A program made the position numbers and the translations under genes. The notes beneath the pieces are model-generated. The model did not search any database. It saw only the letters and a list, made by a program, of their open reading frames with translations, and was not told where the DNA came from. From Deltaproteobacteria bacterium (GTDB lineage: Bacteria > Desulfobacterota > GWC2-55-46 > JADFVP01): a DNA stretch of 64,000 bases. Shown piece after piece: positions 1,705 through 50,695 of the stretch; the stretch's first letter is position 1, and the number at the start of each line of letters is the position of its first letter. The DNA is taken from positions 19,615 through 83,614 of the forward strand of contig JAJRZX010000036.1 in assembly GCA_024275045.1 (NCBI GenBank), written 5' to 3'.

Positions 1705-1793
1705 GTGGGCGGCTAATGCGTGCTTGAGTGTGTGTAAGCTCATCCCCCTATTGGTTTTCTTTGCTTACTTTCTTTTTTCCAAAAGAAAGTAAG
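1705..1793. repeat. Copy 1 of a ~90-bp dispersed repeat ending in a perfect 13-bp-stem hairpin (CTTACTTTCTTTT-ttcc-AAAAGAAAGTAAG).
   Basis: Shares ~80% identity over ~85 bp with each unit of the tandem array at 23075-23326. The hairpin half recurs at 35521-35562. It lies between the convergent bamD and alaS 3' ends. Confidence 0.7.
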
Positions 1794-4976: not shown

Positions 4977-6143
4977 TTAGAATCTCTCTATGCCGTTGTC
5001 CTTTTCTTTTGCCTCTGCCTCCTCGGTACTGCTCTCAAAGTCTTCCCACTCAACATCTCCTGTGGAAGTAATGCCCTGGACCTTGAGCTCAAAGTCAGCT
5101 GGGTTGGAGGATTGTCTCAGGGCCTCTTCATAGGAGATAAAGCCTTTTTTCATAAGCGAGAGTATGGACTGGTCAAAGGTCTGCATCCCGTATGTGGAGT
5201 GCCCCTTGGAGATAGCATCGAATAGTCCTTTTGTCTTTTCCTTATCCTCAATGCATTCGCGTACCCTTGCCGTGGTTCTAAGTATCTCCATGGCCGGTAC
5301 CCGCGTGGTGCCGTCGCTTGTGGCAATAAGGCGCTGTGATATTATGCCCCGTACAACGCTTGCGAGCTGAATACGAATTTGCTTTTGCTGGTAAGGCGGG
5401 AAGGTGGTGACAATTCTGTTAATAGTCTCTACGGCGTCAATGGTATGAAGGGTGGAGAGCACAAGATGACCTGTCTCGGCGGCTGTGAGGGCCGTCTCAA
5501 TAGTCTCTTTGTCCCTCATCTCGCCAACCATTATGATATCAGGGTCCTGGCGCAGGGCCCCGCGCAGGGCCTCGGCAAAACCTATGGTATCAAAACCCAC
5601 CTCACGCTGGTTAATGAGGCAGAACTTGTCCTTATGAAGAAACTCTATGGGGTCTTCAATGGAAATTATATGGGCGGAGCGTTTGTTGTTTATGTAATCA
5701 ATGATGGAGGCGAGGGTAGTGGATTTGCCGCTCCCTGTTACGCCTGTCACAAGTATAAGTCCGCGAATCTCCTCGGCTATTGTATGGAATATGGGGGGCA
5801 GGTGAAGCTCCTCAAAGGAGAGTATCTTCATGGGGATGACCCTGAAGACTATGCCGGCGGCGCCTCTCTGGTTGAATATATTTACCCTGAATCTGCCAAG
5901 GCCGGGGACGCTGTACGCAAGGTCCACCTGATGGGTGGTCCTGAAGGTCTCCTTCTGCGTCTCGTTCATGATGGCAAGGGCGGTATTGGCCACCTCCACG
6001 GGCAGCAGACGCTCGTGGTTCTTAATAGGCGCGAGCTGGCCGTTAAGGCGCAGTATGGGAGGCATGCCCGCCTTAAGGTGTACATCAGATGCCTTTTGTT
6101 TAAGTGCAAAGGCGAGTACGCTTGAGAGATCAAGTCCGGCCAT
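4977..6143 (-). CDS. pilT: Type IV pilus retraction ATPase PilT (twitching motility)
   Basis: Walker A GVTGSGKST and the PilT/PilU family signature. 388 aa. Confidence 0.85.
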   Translation of the reverse strand: MAGLDLSSVLAFALKQKASDVHLKAGMPPILRLNGQLAPIKNHERLLPVEVANTALAIMNETQKETFRTTHQVDLAYSVPGLGRFRVNIFNQRGAAGIVFRVIPMKILSFEELHLPPIFHTIAEEIRGLILVTGVTGSGKSTTLASIIDYINNKRSAHIISIEDPIEFLHKDKFCLINQREVGFDTIGFAEALRGALRQDPDIIMVGEMRDKETIETALTAAETGHLVLSTLHTIDAVETINRIVTTFPPYQQKQIRIQLASVVRGIISQRLIATSDGTTRVPAMEILRTTARVRECIEDKEKTKGLFDAISKGHSTYGMQTFDQSILSLMKKGFISYEEALRQSSNPADFELKVQGITSTGDVEWEDFESSTEEAEAKEKDNGIERF

Positions 6144-8816: not shown

Positions 8817-9920
8817 TTAAAATATAAACCTTCGCATCCGTATGTTGATAATAAGCCCCATGGAGGTCATGATTACGGCGAGAAAGGAGCCTCCGTAGCT
8901 GATAAAGGGCAGAGGTACGCCCACTACGGGCAGGAGCCCCGTTACCATGGCTATGTTTATCACCACGTGCCAGAAAAGCATGGCAGAGATGCCGAAGGCA
9001 AGTAAAAAACCGAATCTGTCTTTTGATGAGGCCGCGGCGCCAAGCCCCTTGAGTATAAGGGCAAAGAATATGAAGATAACAATAGAGGCACCGATAAAAC
9101 CCCACTCCTCGGCCAGTATGGAGAAGATAAAGTCCGTGTGGTGCTCGGGCAGGAACATGAGTTTGCCTTGCGTGCCTCCGGTGTAACCTTTACCTAAAAA
9201 GCCCCCTGAGCCAATGGCAATCTTGGACTGCAGCAAGTGATATCCTGAGCCAAATGGGTCACGCCCGGGGTTTAAGAAGCTCGTAAGTCGCGCCTTCTGG
9301 TAATCCTTGAGGCTCATCCACGCAAAGGGCATTATGGCCGATAAGGCCACCCCGATGGCTATAATGGTTCTCAGCCTTATGCCTACCACAAGGGTCATTG
9401 AGCAGAAGATGGAGAGCAGGATAATAGAGGTGCCGAGATCAGGCTGTTTCATTATAAGAAAAAAGGGTGCGATGAAGATAAGCCCCGGCACGATGAGGTC
9501 TTTTATATCAAGGCCGCGGCCTGCGAGGTTTTTAAGGCTGAAGTGCCGTGCAAGCATTATGATAAGGGCTATCTTGGCGGTCTCCGAGGGCTGAAGTGAG
9601 AGAAAACCAAGGTCAAGCCACCTCTGCGCACCGCCGCTTGATTTACCTATGGCAAATACAAGGAGCAGCAGCACAATGGAGCCTCCGTAGATAATATAGG
9701 CGTAACGCTCAAGGAAGTGATAGTTTACCACCACGGCCCCTGTAAGCAGGACCAGGCTGATAATAAACCAGTACTGGGCCCGTGTGTATGTAGCGGGGTT
9801 ATTGGAGTACGTGGCGCTGTATATGGAGATTAGTCCGATGATGGCCAGTGTTATGGTAAGGCCAAGTACGGCAAAATCTATGTGCGTAAGCAGTCTCTTG
9901 TCAATACCTGTAAATCTCAT
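8817..9920 (-). CDS. rodA: Peptidoglycan glycosyltransferase RodA (SEDS family)
   Basis: A polytopic protein of the FtsW/RodA/SpoVE family. It overlaps mrdA by 4 bp. Confidence 0.85.
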   Translation of the reverse strand: MRFTGIDKRLLTHIDFAVLGLTITLAIIGLISIYSATYSNNPATYTRAQYWFIISLVLLTGAVVVNYHFLERYAYIIYGGSIVLLLLVFAIGKSSGGAQRWLDLGFLSLQPSETAKIALIIMLARHFSLKNLAGRGLDIKDLIVPGLIFIAPFFLIMKQPDLGTSIILLSIFCSMTLVVGIRLRTIIAIGVALSAIMPFAWMSLKDYQKARLTSFLNPGRDPFGSGYHLLQSKIAIGSGGFLGKGYTGGTQGKLMFLPEHHTDFIFSILAEEWGFIGASIVIFIFFALILKGLGAAASSKDRFGFLLAFGISAMLFWHVVINIAMVTGLLPVVGVPLPFISYGGSFLAVIMTSMGLIINIRMRRFIF

Positions 9921-11824
9921 GGCCTGTCTCCGGGAAAAAGGTCTGCTCTATGCCCTGAAGGCGATGCGGCAGAGGGAGGAGGCGAGGGGGCTTTCTGCAG
10001 CCCTTCTCTGTTGGTAAGGTACGCTTTAATGACTTTTTTTGCTATAGGGGCGGCGGCCCTTGCGCCGAAACCGCCGTGCTCTACGAGCACGGCTACCACT
10101 ATCTTGGGGTCGTCATAAGGCGCAAATCCCACGAACCAGGCGTGGTCGCGGAGTTTATATTTTATCTTCTCAAGGTCGCGCTCTCTCTCAACCATATGAG
10201 CCACCTGTGCGGTGCCGGTCTTACCGGCTATTTTAAGTGTCTTGTCCCTGAGGGTACGCGCTGTACCGGCCTTGTCCGTGACAACACCTCTCATGGCGTT
10301 TCGTATCAACTTAAGAATATGTGCAGGAATATCCACTCTGCCCTTTATCTCCGGTGTAAAGCTCTTCAGTACCTCGCCATTGGAGTCGGTTATCTTTTCC
10401 ACAAAGGACGGCCTGTATACCGTGCCCCCGTTGGCAATGGCGGCAAATGCGCTTGCCATCTGAATGGGGGTTGCCAGCATAAAACCCTGTCCAACTGCTA
10501 TGGAGATGGTCTCGCCCTGATACCACCGTTCTTTTTTTACTCTTTTTTTCCAGGCCGAGCTTGGCACGAGCCCTGGTTTTTCTCCGCCGAGATTTATCCC
10601 CGTGGCACTGCCGAGGCCAAAGGACTTTGAGTGTTTTGCCAGCGTATCAACGCCAAGCAGGAGCCCGAGCTGATAGAAAAAGGTATCAGATGACTCTATT
10701 ATGGCTCTTTTGTAGTTGATAATGCCATGACCCGCTTCTTTCCAGTCTCTGTATCCTCTGCCGGCAAAGCGGAATACAGGGCCGGAGTCAATGAGGGTAT
10801 TGGTTTGAATGACTTTTTCCGTAAGCCCGGAGGCCGCCACAATGGGCTTGAAGGTGGATGCAGGTGGGTACTGGCCCTGAATCACCCTGTTGGTCATGGG
10901 GTGGAGGGGGTCTCTTATGAGGCTGTTCCAGTCTTTGTGCGTAATGCCCGCTGAGATTTTATTGGGGTCAAAGGACGGAGAGCTCAGCATGGCAAGCACT
11001 CTGCCTGTCTTTGGCTCAAGGGCTACAATGGCCCCGGCATTCGCGCCCATGGCCTGCCACGCGGCAAGCTGAGTCTTAATGTCTATTGTAAGGGTTACTT
11101 CATGACCGGGAAAAGGCGGGGTCCAGCCAAGGACGTTTATCTTACGGCCAAGAGCGTCTACCTCAAGGTCCTTAAATCCGTCCGTGCCGCGAAGGTACTC
11201 CTCGATGCTCTTTTCAAGACCGTATTTGCCAAGGTAGTCTCCCGCGTCGTAGCCGCTGGATTTGAGTTTTTTAAGCTCCTCAATATTCAGCTCTCCAAGA
11301 TACCCTATAAGGTGTGAGAGCGCTCTGCCGTAGATGTACTCTCTCTTTGGCGTTACATCAAGCATGACTCCGTTCATCTCGAAGTTAAAGGACTCTATCT
11401 TTACGGTCTCTTCCCAGGAGAGGTCTTCTTTGAGTTTTACGGCTCTAAACGGCGGCCGTCCGCTTGCCCTTTTTAGCCTCTCGTTTATGGTCTGCTCTGT
11501 AAGTCCCGTGAGTTTATTAAGCATGGACTTTGTCCCGGGCCAGTCCGTAACATCCTCGGGGATTATGTACAGATCAAAGCCGGGTCGATTTATCACGAGT
11601 TTAATGCCGTTGCGGTCATAGATAATGCCGCGCGGGGCCTGAGACTTTACTGTACGGGTTTTGTTGTGCCGTGACTGCAGGCCGTAGTACGAGCCTTTCA
11701 TTATCTGAAGGTGCCAGAGCCGTACTATGAGGACGAAGAAGAGTATGGCTGCCAGTATGGTTGCCAGATAAACTCTTTTTTTAAACTGAAGAGGTTCTTT
11801 TTCCTGAAAGTATCTCTCACCCAT
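9917..11824 (-). CDS. mrdA: Penicillin-binding protein 2 (elongasome transpeptidase)
   Basis: An N-terminal TM anchor followed by a PBP dimerisation domain and a transpeptidase domain (SxxK, SxN, KTG motifs). Confidence 0.9.
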   Translation of the reverse strand: MGERYFQEKEPLQFKKRVYLATILAAILFFVLIVRLWHLQIMKGSYYGLQSRHNKTRTVKSQAPRGIIYDRNGIKLVINRPGFDLYIIPEDVTDWPGTKSMLNKLTGLTEQTINERLKRASGRPPFRAVKLKEDLSWEETVKIESFNFEMNGVMLDVTPKREYIYGRALSHLIGYLGELNIEELKKLKSSGYDAGDYLGKYGLEKSIEEYLRGTDGFKDLEVDALGRKINVLGWTPPFPGHEVTLTIDIKTQLAAWQAMGANAGAIVALEPKTGRVLAMLSSPSFDPNKISAGITHKDWNSLIRDPLHPMTNRVIQGQYPPASTFKPIVAASGLTEKVIQTNTLIDSGPVFRFAGRGYRDWKEAGHGIINYKRAIIESSDTFFYQLGLLLGVDTLAKHSKSFGLGSATGINLGGEKPGLVPSSAWKKRVKKERWYQGETISIAVGQGFMLATPIQMASAFAAIANGGTVYRPSFVEKITDSNGEVLKSFTPEIKGRVDIPAHILKLIRNAMRGVVTDKAGTARTLRDKTLKIAGKTGTAQVAHMVERERDLEKIKYKLRDHAWFVGFAPYDDPKIVVAVLVEHGGFGARAAAPIAKKVIKAYLTNREGLQKAPSPPPSAASPSGHRADLFPGDRP

Positions 11825-11833
11825 GTATGGTTC

Positions 11834-12313
11834 TTACCTCTCGAAGGCATGGGTGGATACATGTGACTCAAGGCGCTCGAGAAGGTTCATTACAAAGGGG
11901 GCGAAGACAGCGGTAAGGACGACCTGAACAAGGGTTACGGAGCTGAGCCAGAGGTCGCTGTTAATGGAGGTCATGATGGCGTAGATAAGAAAGACCTTCA
12001 TGGAGGCAAGGCAGAGGGCCGTAAGGGCTCTGACGGCAGGGGCGTTGAAGTGGAGCCTCTTTGTCAGCAGGTATACGGCCACAAATACGGCCATAAAAGA
12101 GAAGGAGGTGGAGCCTATGACACCGCCGATTAATATGTCCTCAAGGTAGCCCATGGCAAAACACACAAACACCCCGGCTGTAGATGGTTTTTTTGCCGCT
12201 ATGTAGAATACGATGATAAGGAGCACATCAGGCAGCGGCACAGAGGGCATTATGGTGCTCTCTATAATGAGATAGAGAATAGATATGAGAAAGAGGCTGA
12301 TGTAATCCCGCAT
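11834..12313 (-). CDS. mreD: Rod shape-determining protein MreD
   Basis: A small polytopic membrane protein sitting between mreC and mrdA. Confidence 0.6.
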   Translation of the reverse strand: MRDYISLFLISILYLIIESTIMPSVPLPDVLLIIVFYIAAKKPSTAGVFVCFAMGYLEDILIGGVIGSTSFSFMAVFVAVYLLTKRLHFNAPAVRALTALCLASMKVFLIYAIMTSINSDLWLSSVTLVQVVLTAVFAPFVMNLLERLESHVSTHAFER

Positions 12314-12359: not shown

Positions 12360-13190
12360 CTATTGTTTTGTTCCCGATGGTTTCAGTACTACAAGGACGT
12401 CCTCAATGCTCTTGAAATCAACCTGAGGGGTAACCTCAATGTAGTTAAAGAAGTTGTCTCTGCCTTTTTTAACTGTTGTTACCTCGCCTATTATAAGGCC
12501 CTTTGGAAAGAGACCTGAGAAACCCGAGGTAATGACCTTGTCTCCGGCTCTCACATCATCAAGCTCGCGAACGTATTTTAAGACTATCATGCCTTTGCCG
12601 TTGCCCTCGGCTATGGCCTTTACCCTGGTGCGTTCAACCATGGACTCGATATTGGAGCGCGGATCGGTATTAAGCAGAACCGTTGCCGTTGAGGGAGTGA
12701 CCTCTATAATGCGCCCTACGATGCCCGTTGGACTCAATACTGCCATGTTAGACTCCAGCCCGTCTGCCGAGCCTTTGTTAATCACAGCCGTACTTGTCCA
12801 TTTTGCCGTGTTGTAGGCTATGATGCCGGCAGAGGTAGTCTTAAGGGCGCTCTGCTCTTTATACTGGAGCAGTTCCTTTAACCTGCCAGATAATTTAAGC
12901 TCTTCTTTCAGGCGCTGATTCTCTCCTGCCATGGCCACAAGTGCCTTACGGTACCGCTCGTTCTCTTTTTTAGTGCCAACTACTGCGACGTAATTGTCTA
13001 CCGCGCCCGAACCTGTTCTGTATATGGATAGGATAGAGTTCTGCAGAGGGGTAAGCGTAACTGCAAGAAGCCTTTTTATCACATAACCTCTCTCACCTAC
13101 GCTCGTGTCCGTAAGGGCAAGGTGAAGAGAGAAGAGGGCGAGAAGCCCGGATATGATGATAATATGATTTTTTCTTATAAAGGCGTTCAT
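12360..13190 (-). CDS. mreC: Rod shape-determining protein MreC
   Basis: An N-terminal TM segment, a coiled coil and the MreC beta domain. Confidence 0.85.
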   Translation of the reverse strand: MNAFIRKNHIIIISGLLALFSLHLALTDTSVGERGYVIKRLLAVTLTPLQNSILSIYRTGSGAVDNYVAVVGTKKENERYRKALVAMAGENQRLKEELKLSGRLKELLQYKEQSALKTTSAGIIAYNTAKWTSTAVINKGSADGLESNMAVLSPTGIVGRIIEVTPSTATVLLNTDPRSNIESMVERTRVKAIAEGNGKGMIVLKYVRELDDVRAGDKVITSGFSGLFPKGLIIGEVTTVKKGRDNFFNYIEVTPQVDFKSIEDVLVVLKPSGTKQ

Positions 13191-13486
13191 GACGTATTTT
13201 ACCTGTGAGCGGAGTAGTTGTTTAATCTCTGTCTGAGTGATGCCGCGGGCAGCGCCCGGCTGAGTGAGAGTGTGGATGAAAACCGCAAGCGTGAAGCGGT
13301 AGTTTTTTACAGCGGGCCCTGATTCTCTGTCAATGCCCAGGGGGTTTTATTTTTTGAGCCGTACCCAATATGCCTTGGCCGCCCTTTTAGTGCCTTCGTG
13401 CCCCTCTTGTGCCTTTGTGCCATCCTGCTTCCCATCTGCCCCTTAGCCGAGTATTGCCCCTTTATACCATTTTGCTTCCCACTTGC

Positions 13487-13620
13487 CCCTCTCGCCCTTT
13501 CGCCCAATTACTCTCTCTCCCACTTGCCCCCTCTCGCCCTTTCGCCCCATTACTCTCTTTCCCACACGCCCCTCGCCCTTTCGCCCCATTACTCTCTTTC
13601 CCACACGCCCCTCGCCCCTT
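13487..13620. repeat. About 3.5 tandem copies of a ~40-bp C-rich unit (G-rich on the mre coding strand) in the mreB-mreC intergenic region.
   Basis: The unit is ctcgccctttcgccccattactctctttcccacacgcccc. Copies fall at ~13491, 13533 and 13573, with degenerate copies flanking. The ORF-track ORFs 13398..13703 and 13409..13630 are translations of this repeat. Confidence 0.8.
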
Positions 13621-13626
13621 GGTGCC

Positions 13627-14658
13627 TTAGTTGGGCAGGGTTACTTCTTTTAAGAGGGTTATCTCGTCAAGGAGTCTGCCCGCGCCTTTTACAACGCATG
13701 TGAGAGGGTCCTCGGCAATGGTTACGGGGAGCATGGTCTCTTCGCGAAGTATTACATCAAGGTTTTTTATAAGCGCCCCTCCGCCGGCAAGTACAAGACC
13801 TTTGTCAACAAGGTCTGCGGCAAGCTCCGGAGGAGTGGTCTCAAGTACGTGTTTTATGGCGTCAATGAGTGCGCTGATAGGTTCGTTCATGGCCTCGCGT
13901 ATCTCCTGACCGCCTATCTCCAGTGTGGTGGGTATGCCTGTGATGAGGTTGGAACCCTTTATCTCCATTCTGGCGGTATCGTCATCAGGCAGCGGCAGCC
14001 CGAAACGCATCTTTATGTTCTCGGCGATACCTGTGCCCACGGCAAGGTTGTATTTTCTTTTAATGTACTGCGAGATTACCTGATCAAGCATGTCTCCGCC
14101 AACGCGTATTGACTTTGAGCGCACTATGCCCGCAAGTGAGATAACGGCTATCTCCGAGGTGCCGCCGCCGATGTCCACTATCATGTTGCCCGAGGGCTCT
14201 GTGATTGGAAGACCCGCTCCAATGGCCGCGGCCATTGGTTCCTCGATAAGGTAGACCTCTGAGGCCCCGGCGGAGTAGGCTGATTCTTTAACTGCTCGTT
14301 TCTCCACCTGCGTAATGCCCGAGGGTACGCCTACGATGATGCGGGGGCGCACAAAGAACTTTCTGTTGTGAACCTTGGCGATAAAATATTTCAGCATCTC
14401 TTCGGTTATCTCAAAGTCGGCTATGACGCCGTCTTTTAAGGGCCGTATGGCTGAGATATTGCCCGGGGTCTTGCCGAGCATGGCCTTGGCGTCTTTGCCT
14501 ACAGCAAGAACGCGCTGACTCCCGCCGTCGCGTTTTACGGCAACCACTGAGGGCTCGTTGGTTACTATGCCTTTGCCTTTTACGTATATAAGGGTGCTTG
14601 CCGTGCCAAGGTCTATGGCAAGGTCATTTGAGAATATATTCAGAAATTTGTTAAGCAT
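13627..14658 (-). CDS. mreB: Actin-like rod shape-determining protein MreB
   Basis: A highly conserved actin/Hsp70 fold (DLGTASTLIYV..., DIGGGTSEIAVISL). Confidence 0.95.
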   Translation of the reverse strand: MLNKFLNIFSNDLAIDLGTASTLIYVKGKGIVTNEPSVVAVKRDGGSQRVLAVGKDAKAMLGKTPGNISAIRPLKDGVIADFEITEEMLKYFIAKVHNRKFFVRPRIIVGVPSGITQVEKRAVKESAYSAGASEVYLIEEPMAAAIGAGLPITEPSGNMIVDIGGGTSEIAVISLAGIVRSKSIRVGGDMLDQVISQYIKRKYNLAVGTGIAENIKMRFGLPLPDDDTARMEIKGSNLITGIPTTLEIGGQEIREAMNEPISALIDAIKHVLETTPPELAADLVDKGLVLAGGGALIKNLDVILREETMLPVTIAEDPLTCVVKGAGRLLDEITLLKEVTLPN

Positions 14659-14734
14659 GGTCTCTCCAAGGTAAATTTTTATAACTTTATCAGAAGGATG
14701 TGTCTTTTGGCAAGGATAAAAAACAATAAAAAGG

Positions 14735-14763
14735 TTGCACTGAGAGAGAATATTCCTTAATAT
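14735..14763 (+). promoter_or_regulatory. Putative sigma70-type promoter for ppiD (-35 TTGCAC, 17 bp spacer, -10 TAATAT)
   Basis: A sequence match in the mreB/ppiD divergent intergenic region. Confidence 0.35.
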
Positions 14764-14837
14764 TTAACACTAATACAGGTGCTCAAATATGTGACACTTA
14801 TTACAAACGCCGTTGTAACTGGAGGAAAAACAACTTT

Positions 14838-16763
14838 ATGCTTGAGAGTATACGTCAAAAGACAAAATCAATCTATGTTTTGTTTGTTTTCGCCGCCATT
14901 ATTCTGGTCTTTGTCTTCTGGGGAGTTGGCCCGGGAGGCGGAGGGCGTTCGGGTAACGCCGTGGCAGTCGTTAATGGAGATTCCATAGATATGAAGGAGT
15001 ATCTGGGACTTCATAAGAGGCTAACAAATTATTACCGAAATATGCTGAAGGGTAATTTTACCCCTGAGGTTGAGAAGAGCCTTAACCTTAAGGATAGCGC
15101 CGTATCTATCCTTATAGACAGGCGTCTGGCTGTTATGGCGGCGAAGAGCGAGGGGGTGAATGTCTCCAAGCAGGAGATTCAGGACGCCATAGGTTCAATG
15201 GAGGCCTTTCAGAAGAACGGCACCTTTGATCAGGATACTTATTTTAAGGCCCTAAACGGTGAGCGTATAAAACCCGCGGAGTTTGAGGAGGATGTTCGCA
15301 GAGACATTCTCGTGGACAAGGTGAGGGCAAAGGTTGTTAAAGACGTCACTGTTACCGAGAGTGATGTGAAGAATGCCTTTATGAAGGAGAATAGAGAGAT
15401 AAACTTTTCCTATGCCCTTATAAACGCCTCGGATTTGAAGGGGGCAGTGAAGGTTACGGATGAAGAGGCCCGGCAGTACCTTATGGAACACTCCACGGAT
15501 TTTGTCCTTCCCGCCAAGGTGAAGGCTGTATACGTCTATGGCGAGTTCAAGGCATTTAAAAAGGCTGCGGCCGTAAGCGATAAAGATATAAAGGAGTATT
15601 ACGAGAAACACAAGGAGTCTTTTACGGTTCCGGAAGAGATACACGCGCGCCATATTCTGATACGCCCTGACATAAAAAAAGGTACGGACCGCGATGCCGC
15701 CCGTAAGGCCGCCAGAGAAAAGGCCGAGGGTTTACTTAAGAGAATAAAGGCAGGTGAGGACTTTATTGAGCTTGCCAAGAAGTACTCAGGGGACCCCGGT
15801 TCCGCAAAAAAAGGCGGAGATCTTGGCTGGTTTCCACGGGGTGTAATGATGAAGGAGTTTGAGAAGGCTGCTTTTGTTTTAAAGAAGGGTGAGGTGAGTG
15901 AGATTGTTGATACTCCCTTTGGCTCTCATATCATCAGGCTGGAGGGGCGAAAGCCTGCGGTTGCAAAACCCTTGAGTGCTGAGCGTGATTCAATTAAAAA
16001 GATACTTGCCGTTGATAAAGCAAAGGAAAGGGCTCATAGCGCCATAGAGTCCATTGAAGGTGCTTTTATGAAGAGCAATGACGTAAAGGTACTGGAGCAG
16101 GCCGTTAAGAAGACAAAAGGTCTGACCTTTCATGAGACAGAGCTCTTTGACGCCAGGCATTTTGAGCCTACCCTTGCAGGATTGGCGCAGGTAAAGGACT
16201 CGCTCTTTCTCATGAACATGGGTGACGTGAGCGAGACTATAAAGACCCCTGAGGGGTATTACCTTGTAAAGGTCGTTGAGAGAGTGGACGCAAGGATACC
16301 TCAGTTCGAAGAGGTGAAAGACAAGGTCACGGCTAAGCTTATTGCGATTAAATCCGTAAGCGCAGCCAGGAGAGAGGCCGAGGCAGTGCTTAAGGCATTG
16401 AAAGAGGGCAAGAAGCTCAAGGACGTGGCCGCCGAGAAGGGGCTGAAGGTGGATGAGACAGGGTTCTTTGCCATTACCAACGCAGGTATACCCGGCACAA
16501 AGCTCTCTACCGCTGCCTACAGCGGGCTCTTTGACCTTAACGCCGAGAAGCCCGTATTTGAGAAAACCCTCTCAGCCGGTGACAAATTCTATGTCATGGT
16601 CTGGAAGGCATCAAAAGAGGCGGATATAAGCAAGTTGACCGGCGACTTGAAGAAGGCTTTTACAGAGAGGCTTCAGGCGTCTAAAGAAGATGAGGCGATA
16701 AATAAGTGGATAGGTACACTTAGAAAAAAAGCAGACATACAGGTATTCCAGGACCGTATGTAG
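14838..16763 (+). CDS. ppiD: Periplasmic chaperone and peptidyl-prolyl isomerase PpiD (parvulin domain)
   Basis: An N-terminal TM anchor, a SurA-like N-domain and a parvulin PPIase motif (HILI...GGDLGWF). Confidence 0.75.
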   Translation: MLESIRQKTKSIYVLFVFAAIILVFVFWGVGPGGGGRSGNAVAVVNGDSIDMKEYLGLHKRLTNYYRNMLKGNFTPEVEKSLNLKDSAVSILIDRRLAVMAAKSEGVNVSKQEIQDAIGSMEAFQKNGTFDQDTYFKALNGERIKPAEFEEDVRRDILVDKVRAKVVKDVTVTESDVKNAFMKENREINFSYALINASDLKGAVKVTDEEARQYLMEHSTDFVLPAKVKAVYVYGEFKAFKKAAAVSDKDIKEYYEKHKESFTVPEEIHARHILIRPDIKKGTDRDAARKAAREKAEGLLKRIKAGEDFIELAKKYSGDPGSAKKGGDLGWFPRGVMMKEFEKAAFVLKKGEVSEIVDTPFGSHIIRLEGRKPAVAKPLSAERDSIKKILAVDKAKERAHSAIESIEGAFMKSNDVKVLEQAVKKTKGLTFHETELFDARHFEPTLAGLAQVKDSLFLMNMGDVSETIKTPEGYYLVKVVERVDARIPQFEEVKDKVTAKLIAIKSVSAARREAEAVLKALKEGKKLKDVAAEKGLKVDETGFFAITNAGIPGTKLSTAAYSGLFDLNAEKPVFEKTLSAGDKFYVMVWKASKEADISKLTGDLKKAFTERLQASKEDEAINKWIGTLRKKADIQVFQDRM

Positions 16764-23074: not shown

Positions 23075-23326
23075 GTCCTGTGGGCAGATAATGTATCGTT
23101 AGCCGGTTGTAAGCTTCTCCCTTTGGTTTTCTTTATCTTACTTTCTTATATAAGGTCCTGTGGGCAGATAATATATCGTTTGCCGGCTGTAAGCTTCTCC
23201 CTTTGGTTTTCTTTGTCTTACTTTCTTATATAAGGTCCTGTGGGCAGATAATGTATCGTTAGCCGGCTGTAAGCTTCTCCCTTTGGTTTTCTTTGTCTTA
23301 CTTTCTTTTTTCCAAAAGAAAGTAAG
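23075..23326. repeat. Three tandem 80-bp units (period 80: starts 23075, 23155, 23235). The last unit ends in the 13-bp-stem hairpin of the dispersed repeat family, which abuts and overlaps the obg RBS.
   Basis: The unit is gtcctgtgggcagataatgtatcgttagccggctgtaagcttctccctttggttttctttgtcttactttcttatataag. Units differ by 2-4 substitutions. The hairpin is at 23297-23326 and the AAGGAGG RBS at 23324-23330. Confidence 0.85.
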
Positions 23327-23340
23327 GAGGTTTTTAAAAG

Positions 23341-24372
23341 ATGAGATTTATAGATGAGGCTGTAATTACAATATGCTCAGGGGACGGCGGCAGCGGCTGT
23401 GTAAGTTTTCGCCGTGAAAAGTTCATTCCCAGAGGCGGTCCTGACGGCGGTGACGGCGGCCGCGGCGGCGCAGTGATTATGCGTGCCGATCCTAACCTTG
23501 CGAGTTTGTTGGATTTTCGATACAAGCGCAGTTATGCGGCGGATTCGGGAAAGAGCGGCATGGGCGGTAATAAGTCAGGTAAAAAGGGTGAGGATATAGT
23601 GCTTGGCGTCCCTTGCGGCACATTGATATTAGACGCGGCCTCAGGTGTTGTTATCGCCGATATTACGGACCTTGATGATGAGATACGTATTCTTGAGGGC
23701 GGCAGAGGCGGCAAGGGTAACGCGCACTTTAAGAGTTCAAGGCAGCAGGCCCCGAAGTTTGCCCAGCCAGGTGAAGAGGGTCAGGAGTTGGATATAAGGC
23801 TTGAGCTCAAGCTGCTTGCTGATGTGGCTATTATAGGGCTGCCAAACGCCGGTAAATCCACGTTAATATCTCGTATCTCGGCGGCCAAACCTCGCATTGC
23901 CGATTATCCCTTTACCACGCTTACGCCCATGCTGGGTGTGGTAAAAAAAGACAATTTTTCCGAGTTCATCATCGTGGATGTGCCCGGCCTTGTAGAGGGT
24001 GCCCATAGCGGCAAAGGGCTTGGCATAAGGTTTTTAAAGCATGTTGAGAGGACGAGTTTTCTGCTCCACCTTCTTGACCTATCTCCTTTTACGGGCAGGG
24101 ACCCCAAGGAAGATTTTTTCATGATAAACAAGGAGCTTGCGTCCTTTAACGAGTCGCTCTCAAAGCGGCCTCAGGTTGTTGTACTTAATAAAACCGATAT
24201 TACCGGCACAGAGGAGCTGGAGGAAGAACTCTTGAGTTTTTTCCATGCTTCAGGTATAAAGGTTTTTTCAATCTCAGCTGTAACAGGCAAGGGTGTTGAA
24301 GTGCTTGTAAAGTTCGTAGGCGCCGAGCTTGAGAGGATGAAGCAGGGAGAAGGGGGGCTGGCAGGGCGGTGA
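23341..24372 (+). CDS. obg: GTPase Obg/CgtA
   Basis: An Obg fold with a glycine-rich N-domain and G1-G5 motifs (GLPNAGKST, DVPGL, NKTD). Confidence 0.95.
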   Translation: MRFIDEAVITICSGDGGSGCVSFRREKFIPRGGPDGGDGGRGGAVIMRADPNLASLLDFRYKRSYAADSGKSGMGGNKSGKKGEDIVLGVPCGTLILDAASGVVIADITDLDDEIRILEGGRGGKGNAHFKSSRQQAPKFAQPGEEGQELDIRLELKLLADVAIIGLPNAGKSTLISRISAAKPRIADYPFTTLTPMLGVVKKDNFSEFIIVDVPGLVEGAHSGKGLGIRFLKHVERTSFLLHLLDLSPFTGRDPKEDFFMINKELASFNESLSKRPQVVVLNKTDITGTEELEEELLSFFHASGIKVFSISAVTGKGVEVLVKFVGAELERMKQGEGGLAGR

Positions 24373-35526: not shown

Positions 35527-35562
35527 TTCTTTGCTAACTTTCTTTTTTCCAAAAGAAAGTGG
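35521..35562. repeat. Partial copy (distal ~42 bp) of the dispersed hairpin repeat family
   Basis: ttgattttctttgctaactttcttttttccaaaagaaagtgg aligns with 1751-1793 and 23283-23326. Confidence 0.6.
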
Positions 35563-45733: not shown

Positions 45734-46987
45734 ATGAAGTACATGAAAGGATTAAAGTGCAGGGAGTGCGCAAAGACATATCCCCTGGACCCCATCCATG
45801 TCTGCGAGCTCTGTTTCGGCCCACTTGAGGTGGATTATGATTATGATAATATTGCCAAGGTGCTTACAAAAGACCTTATTACAGGCAGGGCGCCCAATAT
45901 GTGGAGATACAGAGAGCTTCTTCCCATAGACGCCGAGCCCTCGGTTGGCCTTAACTCGGGTTTTACGCCTCTTATACGGGCCTATAACCTCGGCGAGGCA
46001 CTTGGTGTAAAGGAGCTTTACATTAAGAACGACGCCGTGAACTTTCCCACGCTCTCCTTTAAGGACCGCGTGGTCTCCGTTGCCATTTCGCGTGCCATAG
46101 AGATGGGGTTTGACGTAATAGCCTGCGCCTCCACGGGCAACCTTGCCAACTCCGTTGCCGCAAATTCCGCTGCCTGCGGCCTTGACAGTTACGTCTTTGT
46201 GCCCTACGACCTTGAGCAGACCAAGATTACGGGCACCATTGTCTACGGCACCAACCTTGTTGGCATAAAAGGCACCTATGACGAGGTGAACAGGCTCTGC
46301 AGCGAGATAGGCGGTAAATACGGCTGGGCCTTTGTAAATATTAACATCAGGCCATTTTACGCAGAGGGTTCAAAGACCTTTGGTTACGAGATAGCCGAGC
46401 AGCTTGGGTGGAAGCTGCCGCAGCACGTTATCGTGCCAATGGCCGGGGGCTCTCTTATTACAAAGATATGGAAGGCATTTAAAGAGTTCAAGGCCCTGGG
46501 TTTTGTTGACAGCGCTCCTGCCAGGATATACGGAGCGCAGGCCACGGGCTGCGCCCCCATAGTAACTGCCGTAAAGGAAAAGAGCGAGCTTATACGTCCG
46601 GTAAAACCCGATACCATCGCAAAGTCTCTTGCTATCGGCAACCCCGCGGACGGCTTTTATTCAGCCCGTACCATTCGCGATAGCGGCGGCTGGGCAGAGG
46701 ACGTATCTGATGATGAGATAATCGAGGCAATGAAGCTCCTGGCCGAGACAGAGGGCATATTCGCCGAGACAGCAGGCGGCGTGACGGTAGGGGTGACAAA
46801 GAAACTCATTGAGCAGGGACGCATTGCCCGTGACGAGTCCATTGTTATCTCTGTTACGGGTAACGGCCTTAAGACTCAGGAGTGCCTTGCGGGCAAGATC
46901 TCAGAGCCTCCTGTAATAGAGGCGAAGCTGGCCGAGTTCGACGCACTTGTGGATGGCGGCAAGATGAAAAAAGCCGCTATCAAATAA
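45734..46987 (+). CDS. Threonine-synthase-family PLP enzyme with an N-terminal zinc ribbon. It may be a genuine threonine synthase or an O-phosphohomoserine-dependent homocysteine synthase (MetM-like).
   Basis: PLP lysine in the SFKDR context, a Trp-synthase-beta fold, and an N-terminal C-x2-C...C-x2-C. It sits directly behind the S-box. Confidence 0.75.
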   Translation: MKYMKGLKCRECAKTYPLDPIHVCELCFGPLEVDYDYDNIAKVLTKDLITGRAPNMWRYRELLPIDAEPSVGLNSGFTPLIRAYNLGEALGVKELYIKNDAVNFPTLSFKDRVVSVAISRAIEMGFDVIACASTGNLANSVAANSAACGLDSYVFVPYDLEQTKITGTIVYGTNLVGIKGTYDEVNRLCSEIGGKYGWAFVNINIRPFYAEGSKTFGYEIAEQLGWKLPQHVIVPMAGGSLITKIWKAFKEFKALGFVDSAPARIYGAQATGCAPIVTAVKEKSELIRPVKPDTIAKSLAIGNPADGFYSARTIRDSGGWAEDVSDDEIIEAMKLLAETEGIFAETAGGVTVGVTKKLIEQGRIARDESIVISVTGNGLKTQECLAGKISEPPVIEAKLAEFDALVDGGKMKKAAIK

Positions 46988-49402: not shown

Positions 49403-50362
49403 ATGAGAAAAAACAATACACTGGAGAGTTTTGAGGCAGAGAAAGGACCCTCGGCAGGCAAGGCACGGTTCTCGGCCCTTGAGCTTGTTGGTAATACGCC
49501 TCTTGTGAGGATAAACAGGATTACAAAAGACCTGCCGAGCGGTGTTGAGGTATACGCCAAGCTTGAGTCCGCCAACCACGGCGGCTCTGTAAAAGACAGA
49601 CCCGCGCTGCGCATGATTGAAGACGCGGAGAAGAGCGGGCGGCTTACAAAGGAAAAGATAATACTGGACTCCACATCAGGCAACACGGGCATTGCCTATG
49701 CCTGGATAGGCGCCGTAAAGCAACACCGCGTGGAGCTTGTGGTGCCGGAGAACGTAAGCTCAGAGCGAAAAAAGATACTTGACGCATTTGGGGCGAGGGT
49801 GATTTTCTCAAGCCCTTTTGAGGGCTCTGACGGGGCCATACGCCTTGCGTGGAAGCTATACGTGGCTAACCCCGAAAAGTACTGCAAGCTTGACCAGTAC
49901 AACAACCCCTCAAACCCCCTGGCCCATTACTACGGCACAGGGCTTGAGATTATAGAGCAGACAGGCGGGGCCATTACCCACTTTGTCACTACCATCGGCA
50001 CAGGGGGAACCATAATGGGCACCATGCGCAGGCTAAAGGAATTTAACAGCAATATTCAGGTCATCGCTGTAGAGCCTGATAACCCCATGCACGGCCTTGA
50101 GGGTCTTAAACACATGGCCTCATCAATAGTGCCGGGCATATATCACGAGGACTCTCTTGACGGCAAGGTCCCTGCCTCAACAGAGGAGTCTTATGAGATG
50201 ACCAAGAGGCTCGCGAGAGAAGAGGGGCTTCTTGTGGGCCAGTCTTCAGGGGCGGCCATGCTTGGAGCCCTTAAGGTGGCAAGCGGCCTTACCGAGGGAG
50301 TGGTGGTAACCATCTTTCCCGATGGCGGAGACAAATACCTCTCCACACGTCTCTGGGAGTAG
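49403..50362 (+). CDS. Cysteine synthase (CysK/CysM family; possibly thiocarboxylate-dependent, CysM-like)
   Basis: PLP lysine in the SVKDR context, and GNTGIA, GTGGT motifs. 319 aa. Confidence 0.85.
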   Translation: MRKNNTLESFEAEKGPSAGKARFSALELVGNTPLVRINRITKDLPSGVEVYAKLESANHGGSVKDRPALRMIEDAEKSGRLTKEKIILDSTSGNTGIAYAWIGAVKQHRVELVVPENVSSERKKILDAFGARVIFSSPFEGSDGAIRLAWKLYVANPEKYCKLDQYNNPSNPLAHYYGTGLEIIEQTGGAITHFVTTIGTGGTIMGTMRRLKEFNSNIQVIAVEPDNPMHGLEGLKHMASSIVPGIYHEDSLDGKVPASTEESYEMTKRLAREEGLLVGQSSGAAMLGALKVASGLTEGVVVTIFPDGGDKYLSTRLWE

Positions 50363-50695
50363 GGTACATAGGGCGGCAGGGGGGACGTGCGCAGGGGCAA
50401 GTGGGTGCCGGGGTGAGATAACCGGGGTAGTGCGGAGTTTATATGTAGTGGTGCTTTGGGTCCAATAGGAAGTAAGTACCCCATGACGCACGATTTAATT
50501 GTTTTCATTACGTATTGATTTACAAGACCTTCTTAACTTTAAAATTTAAAATCTGAGATTTTTTTAAAGGGCCTTTGCGAGACCCTTTTAGAGTTTTTGC
50601 AGGTAAGAGCATTTTTTTCTACAGACAGATACGCGTAAGAAGAATATGGGGGCAAAGAGCCCTCTTAACTTAAAAATAAACTTAAGGGGTAAGTC

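Follow-up and report, generated by a model that had tools for sequence, protein, structure and literature searches.

The spacer between mreB and mreC in the 64-kb stretch of DNA analysed here (the window), which comes from an uncultured relative of sulfate-reducing bacteria, holds a G-rich tandem repeat. This raises the questions of how such a repeat arose between two genes of one operon, and whether it influences the expression of the genes on either side of it.

The mreB–mreC locus

Pfam searches confirmed the minus-strand gene order mreB, mreC, mreD and PBP2 for four of four genes. The mreB gene occupies positions 13627–14658 (minus strand; Pfam MreB_Mbl, E 6e-143), mreC positions 12360–13190 (minus; Pfam MreC, E 5e-46), mreD positions 11834–12313 (minus) and the PBP2 gene positions 9917–11824 (minus). 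The latter is followed by a 367-residue ORF (8817–9920), the counterpart of which in relatives has an FtsW/RodA/SpoVE domain. Both the Pfam assignments and the ORF list thus bear out that the repeat-bearing spacer is flanked by mreB and mreC, as had been stated in an earlier note on this DNA. The spacer comprises 436 nt (13191–13626), which is long compared with the gap after mreB in 79 other genomes (median 42 nt, interquartile range 17–80 nt), and its G-rich tract directly adjoins the TAA stop codon of mreB (13627–13629).

The mreC-proximal leader (13191–13281, minus strand) is C-rich and G-poor and is partly conserved with relatives, with the motifs TCACTCA and AGGCAAAAGACGCG-ATG in common. 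In the alignment with the relatives (window 13191–13215), AGGCAAAAGACGCG stands directly before the mreC ATG. A good Shine-Dalgarno sequence was not found in this leader. Promoter matches in the spacer occurred only at the chance rate, and the scan detected neither a promoter of its own nor an antisense promoter. A TAAACA-17-TAAAAT match at 13224–13196 was rejected as an mreC promoter, since such matches arise at the chance rate and this one is not conserved in relatives; it would leave mreC nearly leaderless, and in this genome only. Two small hairpins (13282–13300 and 13314–13338) have T-runs on their plus-strand side, and were likewise rejected as plus-strand terminators, with matches at chance level and no conservation among relatives. 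On the minus strand, a scan of 12800–15000 revealed no sense-strand terminator, i.e., a GC-rich hairpin followed by a U-tract.

Architecture of the repeat array

TRF places a tandem array at 13476–13617, with a period of 39/42 nt, 3.2–3.3 copies, 86–92% matches and a score of about 200. The 40-mer given in the earlier note has two exact matches, at 13533 and 13572 (0 expected by chance), and since these start 39 nt apart and thereby share 1 nt, the period is in fact 39. Units were delimited on the minus strand by anchoring on GGGGCNNNTGGG, which resolved five of them, three clean (39–42 nt) and two older and degenerate, covering the mreB-proximal ~230 nt of the spacer. The earlier description, about 3.5 copies of a 40-bp unit, therefore stands as to the presence of a tandem repeat, and is corrected as to the period (39) and the number of units, the array being longer because five are resolved.

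Counted from mreB on the minus strand, the array opens with the junction segment GGCACCAAGGGGCGA (13612–13626; read from the sequence), which is a partial unit, as it resembles the 3' end of the repeat unit. Unit u0 (13573–13611; 39 nt, GGGGCGTGTGGGAAAGAGAGTAATGGGGCGAAAGGGCGA) is identical over 39 nt to unit u1 (13531–13572; 42 nt, with GAG inserted at the 3' end), and both are followed by unit u2 (13490–13530; 41 nt, nhmmer E 2e-6), with about five substitutions relative to u0 and all four G-tracts kept at three or more G. The degenerate units are u3 (13443–13489, minus; 47 nt, beginning with GGGGCAAGTGGGAAGCAAAATGG; nhmmer E 8e-5) and u4 (13395–13442, minus; 48 nt), the first 12 nt of which are GGGGCAGATGGG. 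Unit u4 bears AAGGCAC iterations, which read GTGCC on the plus strand; the plus-strand iterations reported earlier near 13380–13440 were indeed seen, at 13390, 13398, 13409 and 13417, and belong to this unit. In the tail of the G-rich zone (13360–13394, minus), with AAGGCAC, AAGGGCGG and AAGGCAT, the G>C skew drops toward zero. The divergence of the units rises toward mreC, and therefore the newest copies are those that abut mreB. As the contig appears to be metagenome-assembled, the number of identical copies could be mis-assembled.

No further copies of the repeat were found in the rest of the 64-kb window, nor by nhmmer in 102 fetched loci; an exact-pattern scan of metagenome and viral collections gave 0 matches, and blastn against plasmids and phages gave none. 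A scan of metagenome contigs with the MreC protein yielded two loci only and was uninformative. The idea of a dispersed repeat was rejected, as there is a single locus in the 64 kb and a 12-nt match at 19.9 kb is most likely due to chance. Rfam searches of the array, at gathering and at permissive thresholds (E up to 10), returned only a chance snoRNA match (E 9). Elsewhere in the window, a SAM riboswitch (RF00162; 45474–45590, plus strand, 85.6 bits) lies in a 439-nt gap upstream of a gene at 45734–46987.

A second intergenic tandem array is present at 23075–23307 (plus strand; 80-nt unit, 2.9 copies, 96% matches), between the L27 gene (22710–22961) and an ORF that starts at 23341 and is obg-like by its first residues. 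Its unit is unrelated to the mreB–mreC repeat, and terminates in one half of a palindrome. The palindromic 24-nt element ACTTTCTTTTGGAAAAAAGAAAGT has three exact copies in the window (1767–1790, 23300–23323 and 35537–35560; 0 expected by chance), all intergenic, and has the look of a dispersed hairpin, either REP-like or terminator-like.

Units of 39 and 42 nt are divisible by three, no stop interrupts the frame past the mreB TAA for 54 codons, and a second frame holds a 53-codon ORF with a GTG start, all of which would suit an array that codes for a short repetitive protein or extends MreB by read-through. Two of the three frames are open, however, because the strand is T-poor, and in the relatives L083 and L085 a stop ends the frame past mreB within 7–9 codons. 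The small ORFs of the array have no Pfam match to any protein family and no ribosome-binding site. We therefore reject the coding explanation, which is effectively refuted.

G-tracts and predicted RNA folding

On the sense strand of 13430–13626 (197 nt), G occurs in runs of three or more 18 times, where the average over the window would predict 2.4; the base composition there is 0.49 G, 0.10 C and 0.80 purines. Each repeat unit contributes four such runs, in agreement with the G-tracts that the earlier note had assigned to the transcribed minus strand, four per unit. A regular-expression search identified three non-overlapping canonical G3+N1-7 motifs across the unit junctions (13478–13505, 13519–13548 and 13561–13587, minus strand), and these are the only such motifs on the minus strand in the 64 kb. 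A candidate quadruplex-forming sequence is GGGGCGAAAGGGCGAGGGGCGUGUGGG. With a G4Hunter threshold of 1.2 and a 25-nt window, 108 windows in the array reach 1.2 and ten reach 1.7. The stretch 13467–13632 (166 nt, mean 1.23) is the longest positive one in the 64-kb window, so that the minus-strand G4Hunter check proposed earlier came out positive. The spacer thus combines at least four G-runs and loops of 1–7 nt with G4Hunter scores of at least 1.2, which are the canonical properties of G-quadruplex-forming sequences. The window as a whole has 62 G4Hunter-positive regions in 64 kb, a frequency near the average for bacteria, 1.34 per kb (PMC6539912).

Another G-rich tract was observed on the sense strand at 50363–50435 (plus), where it immediately follows the stop of a cysteine-synthase-like PALP-family gene (49403–50362) and has a G4Hunter score of 1.36 over 81 nt. 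The 12-mer GGGGCAAGTGGG of the mreB–mreC repeat recurs once, at 50394, within this tract. This is a hint that the genome may repeatedly carry G-rich tracts behind its stop codons.

By Watson-Crick pairing alone, the repeat RNA is predicted to have almost no structure (-24 kcal/mol over 191 nt, near-empty centroid, z +0.9), and the fold of the whole spacer is weaker than those of shuffled sequences (z +2.2). With the quadruplex term of ViennaRNA, the isolated repeat is predicted to form three three-layer quadruplexes that span the unit junctions, of the form GGG-N5-GGG-N3/4-GGG-N5/6-GGG. They belong to the fold of lowest energy, in which they gain 3.9 kcal/mol in what is a crude model; for growing transcripts the same crude model gives a gain of 1–3 kcal/mol at 37 °C, which disappears at 50 °C. 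In the full spacer, with the C-rich mreC-proximal part, the minimum-energy fold contains no quadruplex and the gain is nil. Pairing at long range between the G-rich 5' half and the C-rich 3' half was considered and rejected, as duplex energies equal those of shuffled controls in six of six genomes. The IVYWREL fraction of the window's ORFs is 0.409 (18.8k residues), which suggests, as a rough estimate, a growth optimum near 48 °C; the organism may thus be a moderate thermophile.

The essentially unstructured RNA and its repeated GGGAAAG, GGGAGAG, CAGGATGG and AAGGCAC motifs would also be compatible with a single-stranded purine-rich platform without quadruplexes, which would bind a CsrA-, Hfq- or S1-like protein, or 30S subunits through its Shine-Dalgarno-like GAGG/AAGG motifs, and would modulate the translation of mreC or the decay of the message. 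However, the motifs are not conserved in relatives, the array stops ~200 nt short of the mreC start, and we found no hairpin-presented GGA motifs in it, besides the lack of an Rfam match and of a promoter or terminator of its own. We consider such a platform very unlikely.

The mreB–mreC spacer in related genomes

Searches with MreB and MreC yielded eleven species-level relatives, all uncultured Thermodesulfobacteriota. The mreB–mreC spacer measures 355 nt in L081 (MreC 89% identical to that of the window), 138 nt in L098 (87%), 295 nt in L099 (86%), 334 nt in L083 (84%), 187 nt in L001/L101 (79%), 111 nt in L085 (79%), 283 nt in L088 (76%), 106 nt in L090 (73%), 107 nt in L092 (71%) and 51 nt in L094 (65%), and 2 nt in L002, for which the MreB identity is 82%. 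The 39/42-nt repeat is absent from all eleven, whose spacers span 2 to 355 nt. The comparison of spacer lengths that the earlier note had offered as a check thus yielded the first part of one outcome that the note would take as a refutation, namely a repeat that is absent or variable: the repeat is private to this genome, and the spacer varies from 2 to 436 nt.

A G-rich, C-poor tract directly 3' of the mreB stop is nevertheless strong in L081, L083, L001/L101 and L085, and weak in L099. These relatives lie in the two closest clades in the MreC tree, and their tract sequences differ to the point that they no longer align; the window has only short seeds in common with them, namely the first 12 nt of u4, also present in L001, and GCAAGTGTGGGGAAAGCAG in L099. 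In L098, which falls inside the window's own clade, the tract has been lost. The polarity of composition is inherited, with G>C beside mreB and C>G beside mreC. Over the 80 nt that follow mreB, the G4Hunter score in 79 more distant genomes is -0.04 ± 0.23 (maximum 0.64), against 1.27 in the window, so that the clade is truly peculiar in its G-rich flank.

The G-rich tracts of L081, L083 and L001 carry small tandem duplications of their own, with periods of 9, 10, 16 and 15 nt. In L001, a perfect G4-N5-G4-N5-G4-N5-G4 is predicted to form a four-layer quadruplex worth -18.7 kcal/mol. Clustering of G-runs beyond composition was not detected in the relatives, where the counts equal those of mono- and dinucleotide shuffles of each tract. 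What is conserved is consequently G-richness and not quadruplex geometry, and the excess of G-runs in the window arises because its copies are not independent.

In a sister clade (L090 and L092), GC hairpins of 7 and 10 bp lie 2 nt past the mreB stop, one of them followed by UUUU. In L079, an unrelated delta-proteobacterial MAG, the mreB–mreC spacer (189 nt) opens with short repeats of the GCGGGTTAC type, and these seem to form a long imperfect hairpin with a complementary, C/A-rich arm downstream (positions 5036–5150 of L079), a different solution at the same position.

Origin of the array

The feature is an intercistronic minisatellite, in which an inherited G-rich flank was enlarged by successive tandem duplications of a 39–42-nt unit, at a site prone to duplication in several lineages. 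In the two closest clades, the G-rich 3' flank of mreB turns over fast through small, lineage-specific tandem duplications. The duplications that built the array are most simply explained by replication slippage, for which selection is not required.

The array could be a neutral minisatellite in a slippage-prone and weakly constrained spacer, its G-richness a by-product of local duplication. The private repeat with its two identical copies, the hypervariable spacer, the loss of the tract in L098, the independent small duplications in L081, L083 and L001, the G-runs at the level of composition in the relatives, and the second, unrelated array (80 nt × 2.9) in another operon spacer of the window all point in this direction. 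Moreover, G-richness could persist by copying rather than by selection, because the tracts of the relatives carry their own duplications. Against neutrality, G-richness right after mreB persists across two clades in sequences that do not align, exceeds the 79 background genomes by more than 5 SD, and occupies the position of the sister clade's hairpin, and a similar sense-strand tract follows another gene of the window (50363–50435). We regard a neutral origin as almost as likely as the barrier role discussed below, which is slightly preferred.

Potential role of the array in the mre operon

We propose, with a probability of about 0.4, that the array may act as a non-hairpin barrier, composed of RNA quadruplexes or of G4/R-loop structures, that raises mreB relative to mreCD. 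If the array has any function, this is the most likely one. It would be transcribed within the mreBCD-mrdA-rodA message, in which a segment of ~230 nt with dense G-tracts and no competing hairpins could form up to three or four three-tetrad RNA quadruplexes; G4 or R-loop structures would likewise be possible on the G-rich non-template DNA strand. The array would then take the role that the GC hairpin after mreB may have in the sister clade, pausing or terminating some polymerases, blocking 3'-to-5' exonucleases, or both, so that mreB-only message would accumulate above mreCD message.

The dense sense-strand G-runs, the near-absence of Watson-Crick structure, the quadruplexes predicted for the isolated repeat and for L001, and the G-rich flank shared by the two closest clades are in favour of such a barrier. 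So is the position, at which other genomes have a 3'-end element that would yield an mreB-only transcript, as with the hairpins of L090 and L092. Legionella has a terminator after mreB and a monocistronic mreB mRNA of 1.1 kb (PMC4630621), and Anabaena has a 1.3-kb mreB transcript in addition to 3-kb mreBCD transcripts (PMC7593598). On the other hand, the private repeat, the range of spacer lengths (2–436 nt), the loss in L098, the composition-level G-runs, the possible persistence of G-richness by copying, the small gain in the folding model, which is nil at 50 °C and thus near the roughly estimated growth optimum, and the failure of rG4-seq to detect three-tetrad RNA quadruplexes in E. coli (PMC6974567) all count against it. 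From the comparison of genomes, a regulatory role seems plausible but unproven, with close relatives that do without the repeat. The suggestion of the earlier note that a structured spacer could set operon polarity is partly supported, by the G4 potential and the position, whereas the comparative evidence for it is weak.

A related possibility places the action at the level of the DNA or of antisense transcription, with a G-loop or R-loop on the non-template strand that blocks polymerases, or a rut-like Rho site on the plus strand that silences antisense transcription into mreB. The composition of the array fits the published rules for both R-loop-forming sequences and rut sites, with G at 0.46–0.54 over 142–267 nt on the non-template strand and C at 0.49–0.54 on the plus strand. 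Both versions share the comparative predictions of the main explanation, and the scan found no antisense promoter; we consider them improbable to a similar degree as the protein-binding platform. It is also unlikely, though somewhat less remote, that throughout this moderately thermophilic Thermodesulfobacteriota lineage G-tract arrays after stop codons, as RNA quadruplexes or G-loops, replaced hairpins as general 3'-end or operon-decoupling elements. The mreB:mreCD ratio would in that case depend on the array behind mreB, with the number of its copies as an evolvable dial.

Should the barrier exist, and the array attenuate or stabilise the message, it would represent a natural array of three-tetrad RNA quadruplexes that controls gene ratios in an operon essential to a bacterium. 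Three-tetrad RNA quadruplexes seem to be avoided by model bacteria (PMC6974567). In E. coli, rG4-seq detected no canonical three-quartet RNA quadruplex, and the rG4-seq sites of model bacteria lie without exception in coding regions and, with few exceptions, have two quartets (PMC6974567), so that tandem canonical motifs in an operon spacer are unusual for bacteria. A regulatory array would, in addition, be an element that evolves through changes in copy number. If the array is neutral, it still shows that several hundred untranslated nucleotides can be accommodated between mreB and mreC, and that intergenic minisatellites arise readily in this lineage.

Comparison with known systems

The terminator or stabiliser hairpins associated with mreB in Legionella, Anabaena, L090 and L092 have the same position as the array, 3' of the mreB stop and before mreC. 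The array differs from them in having neither a GC hairpin nor a U-tract. Its RNA is unstructured and does not combine a GC-rich hairpin with a U-tract as intrinsic terminators and attenuators do, and any barrier formed by it would have to be non-Watson-Crick. With sponge RNAs of the CsrB/RsmY type the array has in common repeated purine-rich motifs with GGA or GGG, and it differs from these RNAs by the absence of GGA hairpin loops, of its own promoter and terminator, and of an Rfam match.

Mycobacterial interspersed repetitive units (MIRU/VNTR) are intercistronic minisatellites. They resemble the array in their tandem units of ~40 nt between genes of one operon and in a unit length that is a multiple of three, and the five copies of 39–48 nt found here agree with the MIRU-type arrangement of tandem units of 40–100 nt between operon genes. 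MIRU/VNTR are, however, dispersed at many loci, whereas the array was found at a single locus in the 64 kb of genome, the 102 loci and the metagenome scan. A MIRU-type unit ORF bridging the mreB stop and the mreC start is also absent, as the open frames end ~250 nt before mreC.

Canonical quadruplex-forming sequences are like the array in their G3+N1-7 motifs, their G4Hunter scores above 1.2 and their location on the transcribed strand. The rG4-seq sites of model bacteria, in contrast, are coding and mostly two-quartet, while the array has three to four tandem motifs in an operon spacer and its folding is predicted. Overall, the array belongs to two known kinds of element, as it is both a quadruplex-prone sequence and an intergenic minisatellite.
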